Shown: in pieces, positions 12,184 through 24,554 of the stretch
Layout of the letters: every line of letters begins with the position of its first letter
Position numbering within the stretch: position 1 is the stretch's first letter
Origin: Escherichia coli
Lineage (GTDB): Bacteria > Pseudomonadota > Gammaproteobacteria > Enterobacterales > Enterobacteriaceae
DNA: 64,000 nucleotides
Direction: 5' to 3' (one strand)
Assembly: GCF_050920415.1 (NCBI RefSeq)
Contig: NZ_CP169309.1
The notes under the pieces: model-generated
Databases searched by the model: none
Seen by the model: only the letters and a program-made list of their open reading frames with translations
What the model was told of the DNA's origin: nothing
Made by a program: the position numbers and the translations under genes

Positions 12184-12197
12184 TTGACAAATATCAA
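12184..12197 (+). promoter_or_regulatory. FNR box (TTGAC-N4-ATCAA) in fnr promoter region
   Basis: ttgacaaatatcaa matches FNR consensus TTGAT-N4-ATCAA, about 20 bp upstream of fnr start; fnr is known to be autoregulated. Confidence 0.55.
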
Positions 12198-12216: not shown

Positions 12217-12969
12217 ATGATCCCGGAAAAGCGAATTATACGGCGCATTCAGTCTGGCGGTTGTGCTATCCATTGCCAGGATTGCAGCATCAGCCAGCTT
12301 TGCATCCCGTTCACACTCAACGAACATGAGCTTGATCAGCTTGATAATATCATTGAGCGAAAGAAGCCTATTCAGAAAGGCCAGACGCTGTTTAAGGCTG
12401 GTGATGAACTTAAATCGCTTTATGCCATCCGCTCCGGTACGATTAAAAGTTATACCATTACTGAGCAAGGCGACGAGCAAATCACTGGTTTCCATTTAGC
12501 TGGTGACCTGGTGGGATTTGATGCAATCGGCAGCGGTCATCACCCGAGCTTCGCGCAGGCGCTGGAAACCTCGATGGTATGTGAAATTCCGTTCGAAACG
12601 CTGGACGATTTGTCCGGTAAAATGCCGAATCTGCGTCAGCAGATGATGCGTCTGATGAGCGGTGAAATCAAAGGCGATCAGGACATGATCCTGCTGTTGT
12701 CGAAGAAAAATGCCGAGGAACGTCTGGCTGCATTCATCTACAACCTGTCCCGTCGTTTTGCCCAACGCGGCTTCTCCCCTCGTGAATTCCGCCTGACGAT
12801 GACTCGTGGCGATATCGGTAACTATCTGGGCCTGACGGTAGAAACCATCAGCCGTCTGCTGGGTCGCTTCCAGAAAAGCGGCATGCTGGCAGTCAAAGGT
12901 AAATACATCACCATCGAAAATAACGATGCGCTGGCCCAGCTTGCTGGTCACACGCGTAACGTTGCCTGA
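12217..12969 (+). CDS. fnr: fumarate/nitrate reduction regulator FNR (CRP/FNR family)
   Basis: 250 aa from [23 protein letters not shown]; N-terminal Cys cluster and C-terminal HTH; upstream ATG of track ORF rejected. Confidence 0.92.
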
Positions 12970-17309: not shown

Positions 17310-17351
17310 ATATTTTTTAACCTTAAAATAATATGGTACACACAATGGTAC

Positions 17352-17381
17352 ACAAAAAGAAACGAGGCGTTAGCCTCGTTT
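17352..17381 (-). terminator. rho-independent terminator after tail fiber gene
   Basis: hairpin aacgaggc-gtta-gcctcgtt followed on minus strand by TCTTTTTGTG. Confidence 0.55.
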
Positions 17382-17409
17382 CGCGGCGATGTTCTTCGCA
17401 CATCACCTC

Positions 17410-19782
17410 TTATTCTTCGCTTCCGGTCAACTGCTTAACAAGCGCAACCAGTTCGCTAACCTGATTTTCAAGATTGGTGATACGTTCATCCATGACAGTA
17501 ATGTTAGCACGTAAGCTGGCGTTTTCTTCTTCCAGTGCTGTAGCTTTCAACATTAAGGATTGTGTAACGTGCATTGTATCGAGCAATAAAGGCGTAGTAT
17601 CAAGCTCTTTCACCTCTATTTCTTTGTTGTTATTATCATAATGTGTTCTTGTTTTTACATATAACGGATCTATTAGTTCGGCTGATTGTGAAATAATGCC
17701 ACGCCGCACTCTTTCTTTTTCATCACCATTGAATACGAATGTTACGAAATCAAGGTTTTCTAAATTGCTCCACGCTTTATCTACGGTAGCGTGCTGCACA
17801 TTATGCTTAAATCTAATATCAGATATTGCATTTTTAGTAACCGTTGAGGTTTCTGTTACGGAATAATTATCCCATTTGGTAAAGTAAATGTTTGAATCAA
17901 ACGGGGCAATTTCAAGTCTTACTCCGTATTTGTTATCACTATCACCAACGCAGTTTAATGAAGTCCTAGCAAAACTAGTGGTATTGTGATGAATTAAACC
18001 GAGACTATACCAAGTCGCATACCCCGCTGAGGATGCTTGCCCTGCACTAAAATTGGAATTAAACGACCAGTTTTCACCTATATTAGTGTAAGGTACAACG
18101 AATGTTGCGCCGTGCGTTGGGATCTCACCCCAACTTAAAAGTTTTTGCGTTGTAGCCCTAAATGATGCTGATTCAAAAAGCCCGCTATCATTTACCGTAA
18201 TTCTCCCCTTGTTCCCTGATGTTTTATTTTCAACTTCAATAACTGCATAGTGGGATTGATCGATATACGCATCACCCCACATCGACACTTCGCATTCTGA
18301 GGCGTCACCGATCTTGTATACGGATTTTACAACACCTGTAGTTGATTTTGTTCCGGTTGATAGCCTTGTTTTGTCGGCGTTAATTACGCTCCAGGATGTA
18401 TTTGCAGCGGTAAAGCCACCAGATGCACGGATCACCCATACACCAACAAAGTTTCGTGTAAGAATTTCATCTGTTGATGCTCCATAAATCGGGCTACACC
18501 GTGACGCATCAAAAGTACATGTATTATAACGGCCTTCCAAAGCGGTTGTACCGCTAGGAATTGCATCACCTACACCGTCAGGAAATACACTGTTATCGGA
18601 GGAAAATGCACCATAAGATGTGCCAATGGCTTGCGCGTAACTCCCACCGGAATAAGTGGTAAAATAACCAGTAATATTTGGCGCGGCTGATTCAAATAGT
18701 TGTCCGTTTGCACTACTAACGCCACCATCACCTCGACCATAAAGCGCTCTGATCGATCCTTCTTGTATACCGTTTTTATCGGGAACGCGGAAAGTTGTTT
18801 CTCCGTCACCCGTGGAATATTTACCGCGTTGGAATTTATCAGCCAGCCATTCAGAATCATCTATAGCGCCCACCATTTGAGCGTAAGCCCACAATTCAGG
18901 CCAATCTGCACGGTTAAGTAATTGCCCGTCCGATGTAACCTCATAAGGCTGAATATAAGCGCGGCTATCGCGTAAGTGGAAATCCCCTACGCCGTAATTC
19001 ATAACACCGTTCATTGTTGGTCCGACTGTACCACTATTGATATAGTTCATTACCCAACGCATTGTTACAGCGTCGTAATCACTTACCGGATCGCCTGCTA
19101 ATGGCGTTGAACCTATTGGGCGAACGTTCAACCAGGCCGCCGCTCGGTCGGCAAGATCGGAAAGGTTATTTTGTATTCTTAGAAATGAATCCGGGTTTAT
19201 GTCGTTTTTGTACCCTTCCGCTATGTTTTTATATTCTTCGGCGTTAGCGGCGCTTTCTGCTGCGTTTACTGCCGCCCCTGTTGCGGTAACAGCCCCTTCT
19301 TCTGCTGTTTGTGCTGCTGCTTCTGCTGCTGCTTTAGATGATTCGGCGTCTGTTTTGTATTGCTGAGTTGTCGCTTTATCTGCGCTTACTTGCGCTGAGT
19401 CCGTGTGAACTTGGTTAACTAGTGCTATCAATCCATCAAGATCAAATTCCTGAAAAAATTCAACTGCGTTTGCAATTTCGGTTTCCTTGCCCTGATAGTA
19501 ACGCAGAGTTTCAGCAACATCTTGCGCTAAACCATCTACAGAAATCGAGTCTGAAAGCAGAATACTGAATTTTGTCCCGGCAGATATTGCAGGGTCGGCC
19601 GCAGGAGTTACTGATAATTCAGTTCCGCTCTTAATTTCGGTGATGGTAAATATCTGCACAGGATCGCTAACTGCAATCAGCGTGCACCCTTCCCGGATGA
19701 GCGAAAGCGGCGCGGTGAAGCTTGTCCCCAAGCCTGTAACAGTGTTACCACTAATAGCTATTGTTCCTGTTGTATAAATCAT
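17410..19782 (-). CDS. phage tail fiber protein with C-terminal intramolecular chaperone (peptidase S74-like) domain
   Basis: 790 aa; Ala/Glu-rich coiled region; C-terminal SDIRFKHN motif typical of self-cleaving chaperone domains; terminal coiled coil; GGAG RBS. Confidence 0.72.
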   Translation of the reverse strand: MIYTTGTIAISGNTVTGLGTSFTAPLSLIREGCTLIAVSDPVQIFTITEIKSGTELSVTPAADPAISAGTKFSILLSDSISVDGLAQDVAETLRYYQGKETEIANAVEFFQEFDLDGLIALVNQVHTDSAQVSADKATTQQYKTDAESSKAAAEAAAQTAEEGAVTATGAAVNAAESAANAEEYKNIAEGYKNDINPDSFLRIQNNLSDLADRAAAWLNVRPIGSTPLAGDPVSDYDAVTMRWVMNYINSGTVGPTMNGVMNYGVGDFHLRDSRAYIQPYEVTSDGQLLNRADWPELWAYAQMVGAIDDSEWLADKFQRGKYSTGDGETTFRVPDKNGIQEGSIRALYGRGDGGVSSANGQLFESAAPNITGYFTTYSGGSYAQAIGTSYGAFSSDNSVFPDGVGDAIPSGTTALEGRYNTCTFDASRCSPIYGASTDEILTRNFVGVWVIRASGGFTAANTSWSVINADKTRLSTGTKSTTGVVKSVYKIGDASECEVSMWGDAYIDQSHYAVIEVENKTSGNKGRITVNDSGLFESASFRATTQKLLSWGEIPTHGATFVVPYTNIGENWSFNSNFSAGQASSAGYATWYSLGLIHHNTTSFARTSLNCVGDSDNKYGVRLEIAPFDSNIYFTKWDNYSVTETSTVTKNAISDIRFKHNVQHATVDKAWSNLENLDFVTFVFNGDEKERVRRGIISQSAELIDPLYVKTRTHYDNNNKEIEVKELDTTPLLLDTMHVTQSLMLKATALEEENASLRANITVMDERITNLENQVSELVALVKQLTGSEE

Positions 19783-19941
19783 CTCAACAACTCCATAATG
19801 TTAACTTATGTGTCAATTCTACCATTTTGCGATCTGTGTTACATTTCTGTCTTATACAAAATGTATTTGTTGATTTACATCAATGTTGTGAAAATGCGGT
19901 TTGTGGATACTACAACCAACGAAACAACGGAGGGTAAGACA

Positions 19942-20181
19942 ATGAAAGGCTTAAAAAATATCGCTATCGCTGCAATGGTTGCTGGTCTGGTTGGTTGTGC
20001 TGATATGCCGAAACGTGAATGCACGGCAATTTATCAAACTGGCGGTAATGAGTATGCGGTTGCAGTCTTCGGTGTCGCGGATGTTGGTGGTCACAAAATG
20101 GCTAAGGCTGGGTATCCATTTAATTTTCAATGGGTGAGCGTTGACCACTTCAAGAAAACGGATTGCCCGGAATTGAATTAA
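19942..20181 (+). CDS. small lipoprotein (moron, opposite strand to tail genes)
   Basis: 79 aa; GGAGGG RBS; signal peptide with lipobox LVGC; own upstream promoter-like element. Confidence 0.5.
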   Translation: MKGLKNIAIAAMVAGLVGCADMPKRECTAIYQTGGNEYAVAVFGVADVGGHKMAKAGYPFNFQWVSVDHFKKTDCPELN

Positions 20182-20771
20182 TCATAGGCGTCGGTTTTAA
20201 TGGCGGTGATAGCGTTCCCGTGGTTAATATAGCCAGTTGGTGCATATACGCTACCCGCCTGGATGCCGTAAATTCTAGTTGTGCTTCCGTTGTAATAAGC
20301 CGCCGCATAAATGGATGCACTACCCTGTCCAACGAGCGCCCCTAACAATTGGGGGCAAATAGCATAAGAACCGGATAACGTTTGGTCTATATAAATTCCG
20401 CCGCTTGATCCTGCCGTCCCAACGGTTACAAGGTCTGTTAATATTCTTGATTCATTAGTTAGCACTAGTTCCCCGGAAGCGTTCCAAATAGCCATTCCCC
20501 ACTTCGGCAGCGATGGCGGGAAAATAGTGAAAATATACGCATACCCCGAACCAGCCCCGATTAGTAAAGTTGATGGGCTATTTCTATAAGCTAATACAGC
20601 GGCGGCGGTAGTGCTTTTTACAAATACCATCACGGGCTTCCCGGATGGCACGGCGACGGTTTGATTCGATGATGTTAATGTCACCCGTTCATATAAGCAA
20701 AGCGGCGTTGCTTCCGGTGTAACGAAAATATTCCCGTTACTTAATCTCAAATAAGCTCCGAAGGTTGCCAT
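20178..20771 (-). CDS. hypothetical phage tail-associated protein (MATFG paralogue, 197 aa)
   Basis: start overlaps stop of upstream paralogue (TAATG); shares N-terminal MATFG with 20771..21082; Gly/Ser/Thr/Ala-rich. Confidence 0.4.
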   Translation of the reverse strand: MATFGAYLRLSNGNIFVTPEATPLCLYERVTLTSSNQTVAVPSGKPVMVFVKSTTAAAVLAYRNSPSTLLIGAGSGYAYIFTIFPPSLPKWGMAIWNASGELVLTNESRILTDLVTVGTAGSSGGIYIDQTLSGSYAICPQLLGALVGQGSASIYAAAYYNGSTTRIYGIQAGSVYAPTGYINHGNAITAIKTDAYD

Positions 20772-21082
20772 TAAGCCACCTCCGCAAATATAACAATTTC
20801 ACACTGTGACGCGGGCCATATATTAGCGCCTACCGTATCCCCTGCCGAGGAAATGGAAACAGTACCACCCGAAATAGTGATCTTTCTGCGCGTCGTTGAC
20901 GTTGTGCCATAATCAAGCGTCATCCCATAAGATAATTTGCATCCGGTCGGCACTGTAAAGGTATATGTGCCGGATACCTGCCCGGATGATAAGGAAATAT
21001 AACCAACCACAACGGAAGGTTTAATTCCATAGTTATTAGCATTGCCGCTGGCGTCCCAGGTCGCTACGCCGAAAGTAGCCAT
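20771..21082 (-). CDS. hypothetical phage tail-associated protein (MATFG paralogue, 103 aa)
   Basis: AAGGAGG RBS; directly downstream of J. Confidence 0.4.
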   Translation of the reverse strand: MATFGVATWDASGNANNYGIKPSVVVGYISLSSGQVSGTYTFTVPTGCKLSYGMTLDYGTTSTTRRKITISGGTVSISSAGDTVGANIWPASQCEIVIFAEVA

Positions 21083-21134: not shown

Positions 21135-24100
21135 CTACCATGATCCGGTAATTCGCCCAATCTGGACGCGCAAAACCCCGTTACCGTCTTTTACCGAAAT
21201 AGTGGTATTAGTTAATTTCATCGCGCCCTCACCACTCACCGCGCCGTAGTTTTCGAATGTCCCGCCTTTATCCAGTTTCCATCCGGTACTGCCGGAAACA
21301 TAGTTATTTGACTGGATGTAAGAACCTATTTTCGCGTTGGTGATTGAGGCGTCTTTTATAAATGCTTCGCGAACATACATAGCGCCGTTTTCAACATAAA
21401 ATGGTGTCGTATATGTGCCGTTGGCGGCTGTCATTAATACGAAGCGGTCAACAAGAAAAATACATTGTGATTGCGTATTTGCGCCATCACCAGTTACCCC
21501 AAGCGATATTCCTGACGCGTATTTCATACCGTTGTTATCAGTAGCGATCTTGAGACTCCAAGTTGCCGACATATCACCATTAATATTGGTAATTGCTGTT
21601 TTGTTTTCCTCAATAAGCACTGATTGCCCATTAATTGATGCGGTTACTTCGCTAATTTGCTGCGCGGTTGCTTTTTCAAGCGTAACCATTGCTTGTTCAA
21701 GGTTTGTGACCTTCCCTTGAATATCATCACTTATTTTTGCTTCAAGCTCTGATAATGCTTTTGCTGTTGCCTCTTTTTCCGTTGCGACAACTTCATCTAT
21801 ACGCGTGATCTCTGCTTTTGATTGTTTCAACTGAGCGGAAAGTGTGCGTCTTGATGTTGTTTGAGCTACGGAATTATTAAGAAGCGCAATGGAAACGTTT
21901 TGCAAGCGGGCGCGAGTTTGTGTTAGTTCGCTATCCTGTTCCGAAAGCTCGACACCTATTTCGTCAATACGACTTTCATGAACCCCTAACCCCTCTTCGT
22001 TATTCTGGACGCGATTAATTAGATCTGATGTGGTATCCTTCAGATCGGTAACATCCCCTTTAAGTGTGCTCGTGTCACTAATCAACCCTTGAAATTGCTC
22101 GCTTTCCATGACTTCTTTCGTCACGAAATCTGTAATTTCGTCGAAGTCCTCCGTAGGCTTCCCGGATGCCTCAATAAAATCTGACACACCGAACGCGTTG
22201 CGGGTGCGAATGTACACATAATACATGTGGCCTGTGCTCATGCCGCCGAACGTCCATTGATAACCACGTCCGGTATACTGCGCTGACGTGGTTATGGTTG
22301 CCGGATCCGTAATCCTGTTTTCTCCGGCGTAATAAAATTCATATGCCGTATCAGTGGTGAGTGTTGTTTTGCTTATCGGGTAGACAGTAGCCTGAAATAC
22401 ACCAGGCACCCAATTTACACCGACAGGCGCGGATGGCGCTCCAATCACCAGATCGACGATGCTTTCTGCACCCTTCATGCCAGTGTCATTTCTGCCGCGA
22501 ACACCTAACGTGTATGAACCAGCATCAATGCCATAAAAATCATAACTGTATTTCGTGGTTTCATAGCTTTTAACCACCGCACCATCTGCATTGTATATGC
22601 GGATCTCGAATGTCATGCGATGAGTGGTAGTCTGTGTCTCCCACGTTGCGCGGCATTGAACTGTTTCCGATCCAATGTTTACTACCTTCAGATTTTCGAT
22701 GTTCGGCACACGGAAGTGATTAAGCGTGTCGCTGTTGATTTCGAAGATTGCGCCTTCATCGACTACGGCTTGTTTGTTAGGGTCGTGCTGCGCGGCTTCG
22801 ATAGTGTATACGCTGTTATTTTGTGTTTCTGCTACGCTGGTGATCCTACACAAAACTGGTTTTGCTGCGTTAGTTGATACAGCAAAAACAGTGCCATTTC
22901 GAATCCATGTTGGGGCCGCAGCAAGGGTGATATTGTTTCCGTTAACTCCGGTGATCTGGTGTTTTTTAAATTTGCCATCGCTATCAAGAAGGCTTATTGT
23001 GTCGCCAGCGGTCACATATTCAGAATCAACCTTATCTACAGTGATCACACGTCCATTGTTAGAGACAATACGACCGCCTAAGCGAGCGCCAGCACGGTTA
23101 TTGTCGAGTATCTCGATGATATCACCTGGCGTAAAGTGAATCGCGTCACGGGCCATTTTAAACGTGAATTTTGAAGGCTCGCGCTTCGCTGTTTCTATCA
23201 GCCATTTACCCGCCCGGTGCGCTTGCCCGCGTGATGTACACCCGAAAGCCTCCAGCGTGGTTTCGTTGTAGCCGTCACGGGCGATTAGTTCATCATCTGC
23301 GACATACTCTTTTGATTGTTCCCAGCCGTTTTCCGGATCAGTCCATGACACAATTACCGCGTTGTAGCATTCTGATCGCGCGATACTTGAACGGGTAAAT
23401 GCACCATCCACGACGTTTGCGTTAGTGATGGTTGCGATTGGGTCTTGTGGTGCATCAATCATTATAGTAAGGCGCTGACCATCCCATAACGCTATACCAC
23501 GGAACATCCCGGCGATGTTGTCCAGTAGGTCGCGGGCGCTCATTTGCTCTGTGATGTACGCGTTTAGCGTGACGCGCGGCTCTAAGCCACCATAGCCATC
23601 ATCAACCAACTGATCGCAGTATTGAGAGAGCGTATACAAAGCACCATCATCAACATCGATATAACCAGCCTGTCGAGCAAGGCCAAAACGCTCGTTTTTA
23701 ACCAAGTAGCGGAATATCCACGCCGGGTTATTTGTGTATGCCTTTTTAAGTCCGCCAAGCCATAAACCGGAATAATTTCGTTTTTCCGGGTCGTAGTTAT
23801 CCGGTACATCGACAATCAGCCCACGCAGATGATAAGTGCGTGTAGGTGTATCGGAGTACTGGTCATGGTCAATTACCGCGCCAGCTACAGCAGTGTGAGG
23901 ATAAGACAAGTTATCGTCGATGATTTCGCTATAACTGTTCCAGCGGGTATCGTTCTGTAATAGGTCGCTTACACTATCAGCCGTCACGCGGCGCACGCGA
24001 ATATCAAATGGCTTTTCATCCGGCGCATCAATGATATGAGACTCCAGATATTCACCGCTAATCTTACCCGGACCGATTTGTACGGCCTTAACCGCCGACC

Positions 24101-24554
24101 AGGTGGAAGACGAGGACGGTTTAACATCGATTGCCATAATGACAGACGTTTCTTTCTGGTTTGATTGGTTATCGCTTTCCACCAGTGAATCCACGCCAAT
24201 ATTTAGCCGGACGCGCGTCACGTTCGGATCTGATACCGTCCTGACCAGTGGCGTATCATGCTTTACCTGTGCGTTAACCATCACCGTTGATTCAATGGCG
24301 TTAAAGCCGTTGATCGGTGACTGGTCGGCAGTACCCGGACGCCAGGCGACACTAACGCCTGGAATGCTGGTATTACCTACCGCATCCGTAACAGGAGTGT
24401 CATTAAGCATTACGCAGTTTAACGGCGCGGCAGTATTGACAGGCCCATAAATCGGCCCTTCGCTCAATATATCAAGCACGCGATAAAACTGCTTATGGAA
24501 CAAGTTATCGTTTATTAATGTTGGTGTTTTTGCTTTACCACCGCCGCCGCCCAT
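21135..24554 (-). CDS. tail tip / host specificity protein J
   Basis: 1139 aa; lambda gpJ-like length, position and sequence character. Confidence 0.9.
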   Translation of the reverse strand: MGGGGGKAKTPTLINDNLFHKQFYRVLDILSEGPIYGPVNTAAPLNCVMLNDTPVTDAVGNTSIPGVSVAWRPGTADQSPINGFNAIESTVMVNAQVKHDTPLVRTVSDPNVTRVRLNIGVDSLVESDNQSNQKETSVIMAIDVKPSSSSTWSAVKAVQIGPGKISGEYLESHIIDAPDEKPFDIRVRRVTADSVSDLLQNDTRWNSYSEIIDDNLSYPHTAVAGAVIDHDQYSDTPTRTYHLRGLIVDVPDNYDPEKRNYSGLWLGGLKKAYTNNPAWIFRYLVKNERFGLARQAGYIDVDDGALYTLSQYCDQLVDDGYGGLEPRVTLNAYITEQMSARDLLDNIAGMFRGIALWDGQRLTIMIDAPQDPIATITNANVVDGAFTRSSIARSECYNAVIVSWTDPENGWEQSKEYVADDELIARDGYNETTLEAFGCTSRGQAHRAGKWLIETAKREPSKFTFKMARDAIHFTPGDIIEILDNNRAGARLGGRIVSNNGRVITVDKVDSEYVTAGDTISLLDSDGKFKKHQITGVNGNNITLAAAPTWIRNGTVFAVSTNAAKPVLCRITSVAETQNNSVYTIEAAQHDPNKQAVVDEGAIFEINSDTLNHFRVPNIENLKVVNIGSETVQCRATWETQTTTHRMTFEIRIYNADGAVVKSYETTKYSYDFYGIDAGSYTLGVRGRNDTGMKGAESIVDLVIGAPSAPVGVNWVPGVFQATVYPISKTTLTTDTAYEFYYAGENRITDPATITTSAQYTGRGYQWTFGGMSTGHMYYVYIRTRNAFGVSDFIEASGKPTEDFDEITDFVTKEVMESEQFQGLISDTSTLKGDVTDLKDTTSDLINRVQNNEEGLGVHESRIDEIGVELSEQDSELTQTRARLQNVSIALLNNSVAQTTSRRTLSAQLKQSKAEITRIDEVVATEKEATAKALSELEAKISDDIQGKVTNLEQAMVTLEKATAQQISEVTASINGQSVLIEENKTAITNINGDMSATWSLKIATDNNGMKYASGISLGVTGDGANTQSQCIFLVDRFVLMTAANGTYTTPFYVENGAMYVREAFIKDASITNAKIGSYIQSNNYVSGSTGWKLDKGGTFENYGAVSGEGAMKLTNTTISVKDGNGVLRVQIGRITGSW

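Follow-up and report, generated by a model that had tools for sequence, protein, structure and literature searches.

The question that this locus raises is what a small plus-strand gene, lying among tail genes that are read from the minus strand of an E. coli prophage, contributes and under which conditions it is expressed. The window, by which we mean the whole 64,000-nucleotide stretch of DNA that was analysed, carries this gene at 19942..20181 (+), and an earlier note had described it as encoding a 79-residue lipoprotein with a GGAGGG ribosome binding site and an LVGC lipobox. Direct reading, together with the listing of open reading frames, bears this out: the start codon ATG is at 19942, the stop codon TAA is at 20179-20181, and the 79-residue product reads MKGLKNIAIAAMVAGLVGCADMPKRECTAIYQTGGNEYAVAVFGVADVGGHKMAKAGYPFNFQWVSVDHFKKTDCPELN. 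The Shine-Dalgarno sequence GGAGGG (19929..19934, +) lies 7 nt before the ATG and is GGAGGG or GGAGGA in all seven related loci compared. As read from the sequence, residues 1-18 (19942..19995, +) form a lipoprotein signal peptide, MKGLKNIAIAAMVAGLVG, with a basic n-region (K2 and K5) followed by a hydrophobic core and the lipobox L-V-G-C (residues 16-19, 19987-19998). Both G18 and C19 are invariant across the homologues of a nine-sequence alignment (A1), and the mature protein would begin with Cys19 in acylated form. Lipoprotein sorting is governed by the residue at +2, and the alanine in this position predicts delivery to the outer membrane.

The longest mechanical ORF over the gene starts further upstream (19798..20181, 127 aa), and versions of 106 or 127 residues have been called by metagenome pipelines and in one PGAP record. 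When compared with two E. coli prophages the 79-residue frame shows 10 synonymous versus 3-5 non-synonymous differences (pN/pS 0.08-0.27), and the 27 codons upstream of 19942 give a pN/pS of ~0.6-1.2 in the same comparison. As the ratio is low inside the frame and rises upstream of it, the start is 19942 and the 79-residue reading is the right one. We rejected the 106- and 127-residue readings (P0001, P0002, P0004 and the PGAP call in strain M15), whose extension is neutral and overlaps the promoter elements described below. The pattern of substitutions indicates that the frame is under purifying selection, and at least 11 related loci retain it under such selection. The earlier note had staked its reading beforehand on the frame being conserved in related prophages, and it is.

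By its sequence the protein is a phage exclusion lipoprotein of the Cor family, known and already annotated as such. It scores 53.9 bits against the NCBIfam equivalog NF047972 'phage exclusion lipoprotein Cor' (cut-off 31) and matches phrog_1119 'Cor superinfection exclusion protein' with an E-value of 3.6e-23 over 72 of its 79 residues (profile positions 3-75 of 78), a family filed by PHROGs under 'moron, auxiliary metabolic gene and host takeover'. An identical protein is present in RefSeq (WP_432780748.1, 'phage exclusion lipoprotein Cor', from E. coli) and belongs to a 90% cluster of 97 members from many E. coli assemblies; this particular cor allele occurs in 3 of 5426 complete E. coli genomes. 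Homologues were found by tblastn in 176 phage records, many of them annotated as Cor or superinfection-exclusion, with the best matches (60-63%) in phages of the Drexlerviridae and of Dhillonvirus, and the identity to the experimentally studied Cor proteins of phi80 and N15 is 35%. An exhaustive search of 1.84 billion representatives with the Cor profile returned 40 clusters at E ≤ 0.001, mostly small lipoproteins. Two very long matches (P0023 and P0039) turned out to be Ig-like or Calx-beta repeat proteins and were set aside as spurious repeat matches. Pfam and PADLOC have no model for Cor or for the gp22-like and gp23-like proteins encoded next to it.

Three cysteines are invariant among 26 mature Cor sequences, namely the lipobox cysteine, C9 and C57 of the mature protein. 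The latter two correspond to Cys27 (codon 20020-20022) and Cys75 (codon 20164-20166) of the precursor, which delimit the span 20020..20166 (+) and are retained in 26 of 26 sequences; by analogy with Cys11-Cys58 of T5 Llp they are predicted to form a disulphide. Residues A56-G57-Y58-P59-F60, W64 and V65 are likewise invariant in alignment A1, and the core AGYPF...W is largely conserved across the 26 mature sequences.

In the prophage, which adjoins host mppA, cor is flanked by the tail-fibre gene on one side and by the J-distal tail genes on the other. Tail tip protein J (21135..24554, -; 1139 aa) carries the Pfam domains Phage_Tail_Tip, FNIII-A_GpJ, Ig_J and Phage-tail_3 and is 34% identical to phi80 J overall, with its C-terminal ~100 residues highly similar. 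The first gene of the cassette encodes a gp22-like 'outer membrane protein' of 103 aa (20771..21082, -; phrog_557, E 1e-28) that is 52% identical to phi80 gp22, and mid cassette stands a gene for a gp23-like 'membrane associated protein' of 197 aa (20178..20771, -; phrog_425, E 5.5e-50) that is 45% identical to phi80 gp23 and to its counterpart in Dhillonvirus bob. On the far side of cor lies the lateral tail-fibre gene (17410..19782, -), whose product of 790 aa (phrog_6921, E 1e-188) ends in an S74 intramolecular chaperone domain (PF13884); it is the last prophage gene before mppA, the latter being taken from the annotation. The order J, gp22-like, gp23-like, cor, fibre, with phrog_557 and phrog_425 genes between J and cor, is common to N15, phi80, herni and bob, and it recurs in E. 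coli prophages in which PGAP has labelled the gene cor. The J-distal locus of small siphophages has been described as a receptor-recognition module with a cognate exclusion gene (Maffei et al. 2021, PMC8594841). The gene studied here is the last member of such a conserved receptor-recognition/exclusion cassette and not a free-standing insertion.

The statement of the earlier note that the gene is convergent with tail genes is correct for one neighbour only: cor converges with the gp23-like gene (-), the two stop codons interlocking in TTAA at 20178-20181, whereas it and the tail-fibre gene (-) are transcribed away from each other. The cor genes of phi80 and N15 run in the direction of the tail genes and are followed by a terminator, unlike in the prophage. 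Those of herni (Drexlerviridae) and bob (Dhillonvirus) lie opposite to the tail genes, as here, and that of bob also diverges from the fibre gene. Among 80 cor loci from IMG/VR, 30 are convergent with a gp23-like gene, ~19 are co-oriented and ~31 have neither gp22 nor gp23 within 2.5 kb. The orientation in herni, bob and the IMG/VR loci indicates that opposite-strand placement is normal for this Cor subfamily (T1-like, Dhillonvirus), and the same arrangement, with Cor proteins 87-99% identical, is present in other E. coli prophages and assemblies.

The similarity to the T1-like and Dhillonvirus proteins (herni, JLBYU41, bob, SSL-2009a and T1; 49-63% identity to the prophage Cor) extends to length, lipobox, cysteines and the AGYPFNFQW block. 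These phages also share the cassette with an opposite-strand cor that converges with the gp23-like gene and, in Dhillonvirus, diverges from the fibre gene. They are virulent, however, whereas the source of this cor is temperate, and bob and herni have a hairpin terminator after cor, where the prophage has interlocked stop codons and no intrinsic terminator in a scan of 19300-20700. With the Cor proteins of phi80, N15, HK022 and mEp167 the prophage protein has in common the family models, the temperate lifestyle and the expected exclusion of FhuA-dependent phages.

We conclude that the gene is cor, the superinfection-exclusion lipoprotein gene of an E. coli prophage, and consider it likely that its target is FhuA, with a mechanism assigned by homology. 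The full three-gene cassette has been reported only in FhuA users, namely T1, HK022, N15, ES18, phi80 and the Drexlerviridae and Dhillonvirus phages of the BASEL collection (PMC13164509), and the cor cassette has been tied to FhuA-using phages elsewhere as well (PMC8594841). Phage JLBYU41, whose Cor is among the closest phage Cor proteins (61%), is experimentally FhuA-dependent (PMC10373560). The exclusion of FhuA-dependent phages has been studied experimentally for the FhuA-inactivating Cor lipoproteins of the temperate phages phi80, N15, HK022 and mEp167 (Uc-Mass et al. 2004 and Arguijo-Hernandez et al. 2018, as cited in later work).

The closest mechanistic model is Llp of phage T5, which is periplasmic and clamped by a Cys11-Cys58 disulphide, and which binds a non-native state of the FhuA plug such that EL7 and EL8 fold inward and the phage receptor-binding protein is blocked (PMC9586334). 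Like Cor, it has 61 residues as a mature lipoprotein, and it forms a small beta-barrel with a disulphide that clamps the termini, as is predicted for Cor with Cys9 and Cys57 in the analogous positions; its gene adjoins a receptor-binding gene as cor does. An AF2 model of the 61 mature residues, based on the 26-sequence alignment, is an all-beta small barrel with a mean pLDDT of 82.9. Foldseek aligns this model to Llp in its complex with FhuA (8a60_B) with TM scores of 0.59/0.58, an rmsd of 3.6 Å, 27% identity and a probability of 0.99, but with a weak E-value of 0.068. None of the PDB matches is statistically strong; 8a60_B ranks fourth by E-value, the others being Tudor/chromo-like barrels with similar scores, and it is the most comparable full-length PDB alignment with the highest identity. 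A search of BFVD ranks an exclusion protein from Dhillonvirus first (E 8e-8, TM 0.89); next come small proteins encoded by T5-like phages, among them one with a lipoprotein annotation.

Sequence and profile searches of the PDB with Cor returned nothing relevant, and Llp (8A60 chain B) was retrieved neither by phmmer nor by the 26-sequence Cor profile searched against all PDB chains. The homology of Cor and Llp therefore rests on fold and context, and as these searches do not link the two we file the protein as a member of Cor that probably works like Llp and not as a member of Llp. The authors of the Llp structure expect Cor to act likewise (PMC9586334), and later work came to the same view from predicted structures (bioRxiv 10.64898/2026.03.26.714494; PMC13164509); Cor and Llp are treated as one structural family in all three studies. 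The plug-binding mode on FhuA is solved for Llp and not for Cor, and the preprint among these studies calls the action of Cor itself on FhuA unresolved (bioRxiv 10.64898/2026.03.26.714494). By analogy, Cor most likely works like Llp.

Both the identity of the target as FhuA and the mode in which Cor would bind it we infer from this homology and from gene context. In such a model the Cor precursor would be exported and would end as an outer membrane lipoprotein facing the periplasm, where the 61 mature residues would form a small beta-barrel clamped by the Cys27-Cys75 disulphide. Cor would then bind the periplasmic face or the plug of the TonB-dependent ferrichrome transporter FhuA and lock it in a non-native state with the extracellular loops folded inward, as described for T5 Llp. 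Phages that depend on FhuA (T1, T5, phi80 and the relatives of the prophage itself) would be unable to bind or inject, and the uptake of ferrichrome would be lost as well. Cor would thus be the cognate exclusion partner of the gp22-like and gp23-like proteins, with the trio marking siphophages that use FhuA.

It is conceivable, though improbable in our estimate, that a lipoprotein of the Cor fold blocks a different outer membrane transporter (e.g. BtuB, FepA, YncD or LptD) that serves as terminal receptor. Cor-like proteins occur in BtuB-using phages too (PMC13164509), so receptor specificity is not readable from the family alone; Llp-like lipoproteins are found in BtuB users as well, and the mechanism has been proposed for other TonB-dependent transporters (PMC13164509; PMC9586334). 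The identity to the Cor of phages with known receptors is only 35-63%, and the structural neighbours in BFVD include proteins of T5-like phages. The surroundings of the gene argue for FhuA instead, as phrog_557 and phrog_425 are both present whereas the BtuB-associated cases lack one or both (PMC13164509), the gp22-like and gp23-like proteins share 45-52% identity with their counterparts in phi80, which depends on FhuA, the C-terminus of J closely matches that of phi80 J, and the phages with the nearest Cor proteins are Drexlerviridae and Dhillonvirus members that carry the same cassette, including FhuA-dependent JLBYU41.

The earlier note had placed the gene in the niche of lambda Bor and Lom, as a lipoprotein moron affecting surface properties or superinfection. 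Membership in the Cor superinfection-exclusion family upholds the latter part; the protein is neither Bor nor Lom, and serum resistance is not the expected phenotype. Bor and Lom resemble Cor as surface-related accessory genes in the late region of a lambdoid prophage that are thought to be expressed from the prophage. Their phenotypes are serum resistance and adhesion, however, where that of Cor is receptor blockade, and the families are unrelated. For a small exported lipoprotein encoded after J, in a position like that of lom and bor, a virulence moron altering serum resistance or adhesion and not phage entry might come to mind; the 79-residue protein has no Pfam family at E ≤ 0.1, hence neither Bor nor Lom, and its strong matches to the Cor models, its Cor motifs and its synteny leave such a function with next to no probability. 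Nor do we see much chance that this is a decaying or unexpressed ORF without function in a defective prophage. A consensus scan without a promoter, the missing terminator and an allele confined to 3 of 5426 complete genomes would fit such decay, which is nevertheless very unlikely in view of an intact frame under purifying selection in all related loci examined, the conserved Shine-Dalgarno sequence, start codon, lipobox and cysteines, and the 97-member cluster across E. coli assemblies.

The placement of the gene on its own strand, the conserved Shine-Dalgarno sequence and the conserved upstream elements suggest that Cor is made from the prophage in lysogens. Transcription from the opposite strand would be independent of the late operon. 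The earlier note had seen a promoter-like element with a recurring motif upstream of the gene; the recurrence of the motif stands, and a sigma-70 consensus scan of 19300-20700 found no plus-strand promoter upstream of cor. As the scan found none, our promoter model rests on the comparison of related loci, and all that follows on the regulation of cor we infer from it. Seven related upstream regions align in three fixed blocks, ACAAAATGTATTTRTTGATTTAYRTCAATGTT, TGGATACTAC and the Shine-Dalgarno sequence, with variable sequence between them. A -10-like hexamer GATACT (19906..19911, +) is invariant in all seven loci while the spacer upstream of it varies, and it stands in roughly the same place as the -10 hexamers AATACT, TATAGT and TACAAT of Dhillonvirus and T1-like cor promoters. 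The hexamer 17 bp further upstream, ATGTTG, is a poor -35 that matches TTGACA at 2 of 6 positions, and the transcription start would be near 19918. We dropped TTGTTG-17-(TGt)GAAAAT at 19867-19895 as an alternative promoter because this stretch varies among relatives.

Upstream of the -10-like hexamer lies a candidate FNR box, TTGATTTACATCAA (19870..19883), which reads TTGAT-TTAC-ATCAA and matches the consensus TTGAT-N4-ATCAA at 10 of 10 positions. It is the sole exact match to the FNR consensus in the window, with expectations of 0.087 per 64 kb and 0.0006 for the intergenic gap between cor and the fibre gene. The first base of GATACT follows its centre at a distance of 29.5 bp, which puts the centre at -41.5 if transcription starts at 19918. 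A one-mismatch box is found at 12184-12197, just upstream of the host fnr gene in the same window, which we take to be the known fnr autoregulatory site. Of 23 FNR-activated promoters in E. coli, 19 carry the FNR site at -41.5 ± 4, and nucleoid proteins can keep FNR off its sites where the DNA is AT-rich (Myers et al. 2013, PMC3688515). In the related loci, some of which are possibly the same prophage, the box is either perfect or has ATCAA changed to GTCAA, a one-base departure carried by about half of them, and it is always 72 nt before the ATG. None of 75 more distant cor loci has the box, and upstream of cor in phi80 and N15 there is no canonical FNR box, TTGAT/ATCAA repeats occurring there only with the wrong spacing. 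The candidate box is specific to this temperate clade.

The virulent relatives have an ordinary sigma-70 promoter in front of cor, TTGCAA-17-TACAAT in the T1 type and TTGCAA-17-(TGt)AATACT in Dhillonvirus, in contrast to the poor -35 and the FNR box near -41.5 of the prophage. A promoter with GATACT as -10, no usable -35 and an FNR box at about -41.5 would most likely be activator-dependent, and exclusion by Cor would then be strongest under anaerobic, gut-like conditions. Whether FNR does control cor we leave as a tentative proposal, to which we give somewhat less than an even chance.

A second element occurs just upstream of the candidate FNR box, separated from it by 5 bp. This is the quasi-palindrome TACAAAATGTA (19855..19865, +), whose core ACAAAATGTA is invariant in all seven related loci. 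The window contains 3 exact and 9 one-mismatch copies of it, i.e. 12 versus 1.8 expected, a number reached in 0 of 100 shuffles, and all copies are inside the prophage. In the related UMNK88 prophage 11 copies are found at homologous places, 10 of them in annotated intergenic gaps. Copies of TACAAAATGTA stand upstream of the predicted PL promoter (two in tandem) and PR promoter that flank the gene for a CI-like repressor (61089..61736), 12-20 nt upstream of the Shine-Dalgarno sequences of several genes, and at all four of the divergent junctions inspected where tail genes meet opposite-strand cassettes, including the gap between cor and the fibre gene. As the sole visible element common to the PL and PR regions, it may, as our best guess, be an operator for the phage CI repressor. 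The UMNK88 prophage has the same CI (97.7% identical) together with the same sites, so that the comparison does not discriminate for or against this idea.

The proximity of the two elements also feeds an alternative for the regulation of cor, namely that the FNR box is fortuitous and that cor is either constitutive from a weak sigma-70 promoter or under a phage regulator, possibly CI, acting at TACAAAATGTA, which we think stands not far short of an even chance. The motif is as well conserved as the box that it adjoins and is also found beside the predicted promoters PL and PR and in further gaps between prophage genes, the cor genes of phi80, N15, T1 and Dhillonvirus lack a canonical FNR box, and around half of the clade has GTCAA for ATCAA. 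Against a fortuitous box stand its exact 10/10 match in a gap where 0.0006 are expected, its spacing, precisely that of class II, from an invariant -10-like hexamer without a -35 partner, and the fixation of both elements around a variable spacer in the seven related loci; the cor box is also closer to consensus than the one-mismatch box before host fnr. In the combined reading, which we put forward as possible but with somewhat less than even confidence, the temperate lineage would have replaced the constitutive sigma-70 cor promoter of its virulent relatives with a class II promoter that depends on FNR and possibly also on a phage regulator bound at TACAAAATGTA, such that receptor blockade would operate mainly in the anoxic gut and be relaxed in air.

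The identification of cor in itself matters little, as Cor has long been known and the exact protein is already named in RefSeq. Its value for annotation is that it marks the prophage as a probable FhuA user. The lysogen is predicted to resist T1-, T5- and phi80-like phages and to be without ferrichrome use or FhuA-mediated killing, which would be relevant to the choice of therapeutic phages. According to the literature searched, the only element here not described before is the FNR box specific to the clade, together with the phage motif beside it, and we offer their roles as hypotheses. If the FNR box is validated, then a receptor-blocking prophage gene would be wired to the oxygen sensor of the host, and the phage resistance of gut E. 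coli would depend on growth conditions. Oxygen-gated superinfection exclusion of this kind would spare the lysogen the loss of ferrichrome uptake where siderophores matter.

The gap between cor and the fibre gene holds one further conserved element, which faces the other way. An extended -10-like sequence, TGgTAGAAT (19816..19824, -), points toward the tail-fibre gene and reads TAGAAT or TAAAAT in all seven related loci; the sigma-70 scan, which requires a -35, missed it. Its position suggests that a divergent promoter for the fibre gene shares the gap with that of cor.

The prophage (window 17410-64000) has an unusual gene layout, which is also found in the E. coli UMNK88 prophage (L011): CI, an N-like antiterminator, erf, a methyltransferase, the lysis region, the terminase and the head and tail genes are all encoded on the same strand, and the replication genes (O-like, in UMNK88 also a helicase) diverge from the CI side. 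The UMNK88 annotation additionally contains Q, names the lysis genes and places several opposite-strand cassettes within the tail cluster, one of them with a KilAC antirepressor. At the fibre end (window 17346-17409; also loci L001, L002 and L007) the host neighbour varies within one chromosomal neighbourhood: it is mppA in the window, UMNK88 has a truncated abgT at this place, L007 a gene for an abgT-family transporter, and Ecol_244 ynaN/zntB. As the abutting host genes differ among prophages of this type, deletions or rearrangements at the prophage-host junction are suggested.

Across this layout the quasi-palindrome TACAAAATGTA recurs with a ∼7-fold over-representation (window 19855, 26546, 28135, 31427, 36241, 53230, 56846, 60288, 60966, 60988, 61774 and 63767), and no copy lies in the window outside the prophage. 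The UMNK88 prophage carries 11 such sites, with positions kept between the two related prophages. Almost all copies are located in intergenic gaps; they adjoin PL and PR, the promoters predicted to flank the CI gene, precede several SD+ATG starts by 12-20 nt, and are present at all four of the examined divergent junctions between tail genes and opposite-strand cassettes. TACAAAATGTA may be a dispersed operator for the CI-like repressor, for which the 'stoperators' of mycobacteriophage L5 offer a parallel.

The tail-fibre gene, which inverted cor separates from the late operon, may have a promoter of its own: a conserved extended –10-like element on the minus strand (TGgTAGAAT, window 19816-19824; TAAAAT in some relatives) is oriented toward it, ∼27 nt before the fibre ATG.

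Gene callers often make cor itself too long, at 106 or 127 aa (proteins P0001, P0002, P0004 and P0005). The extension (window 19798-19941) is without purifying selection and overlaps both the FNR box (19870-19883) and the –10 element (19906-19911), and we therefore reject the longer versions as start-site mis-calls. PGAP gives the extended 127-aa cor in E. coli M15 (L010). In this strain an IS903B insertion (L010:1995-2963) separates cor from the tail-fibre gene and lies directly upstream of the promoter region conserved for cor. The Cor profile also scores very long repeat proteins with Ig-like, Calx-beta and PKD-like domains (P0023, P0036, P0037, P0039 and similar); a Cor domain in these was rejected, as the scores arise from short repeated stretches and are spurious.

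A distance of ∼7 kb separates the host fnr gene (window 12217-12969, plus strand) from the prophage FNR box. Directly upstream of fnr is the box TTGACAAATATCAA (window 12184-12197), probably the known fnr autoregulatory site, which carries one mismatch and provides an internal comparison for the perfect box at prophage cor. In phi80 (L004:8185-8240) and N15 (L003:6495-6535), clustered TTGAT/ATCAA inverted repeats are found directly after gp23 and upstream of cor; their spacing is non-FNR, as in the phi80 examples TTGATCG-N7-CGATCAA and TTGAT-CT-ATCAA.
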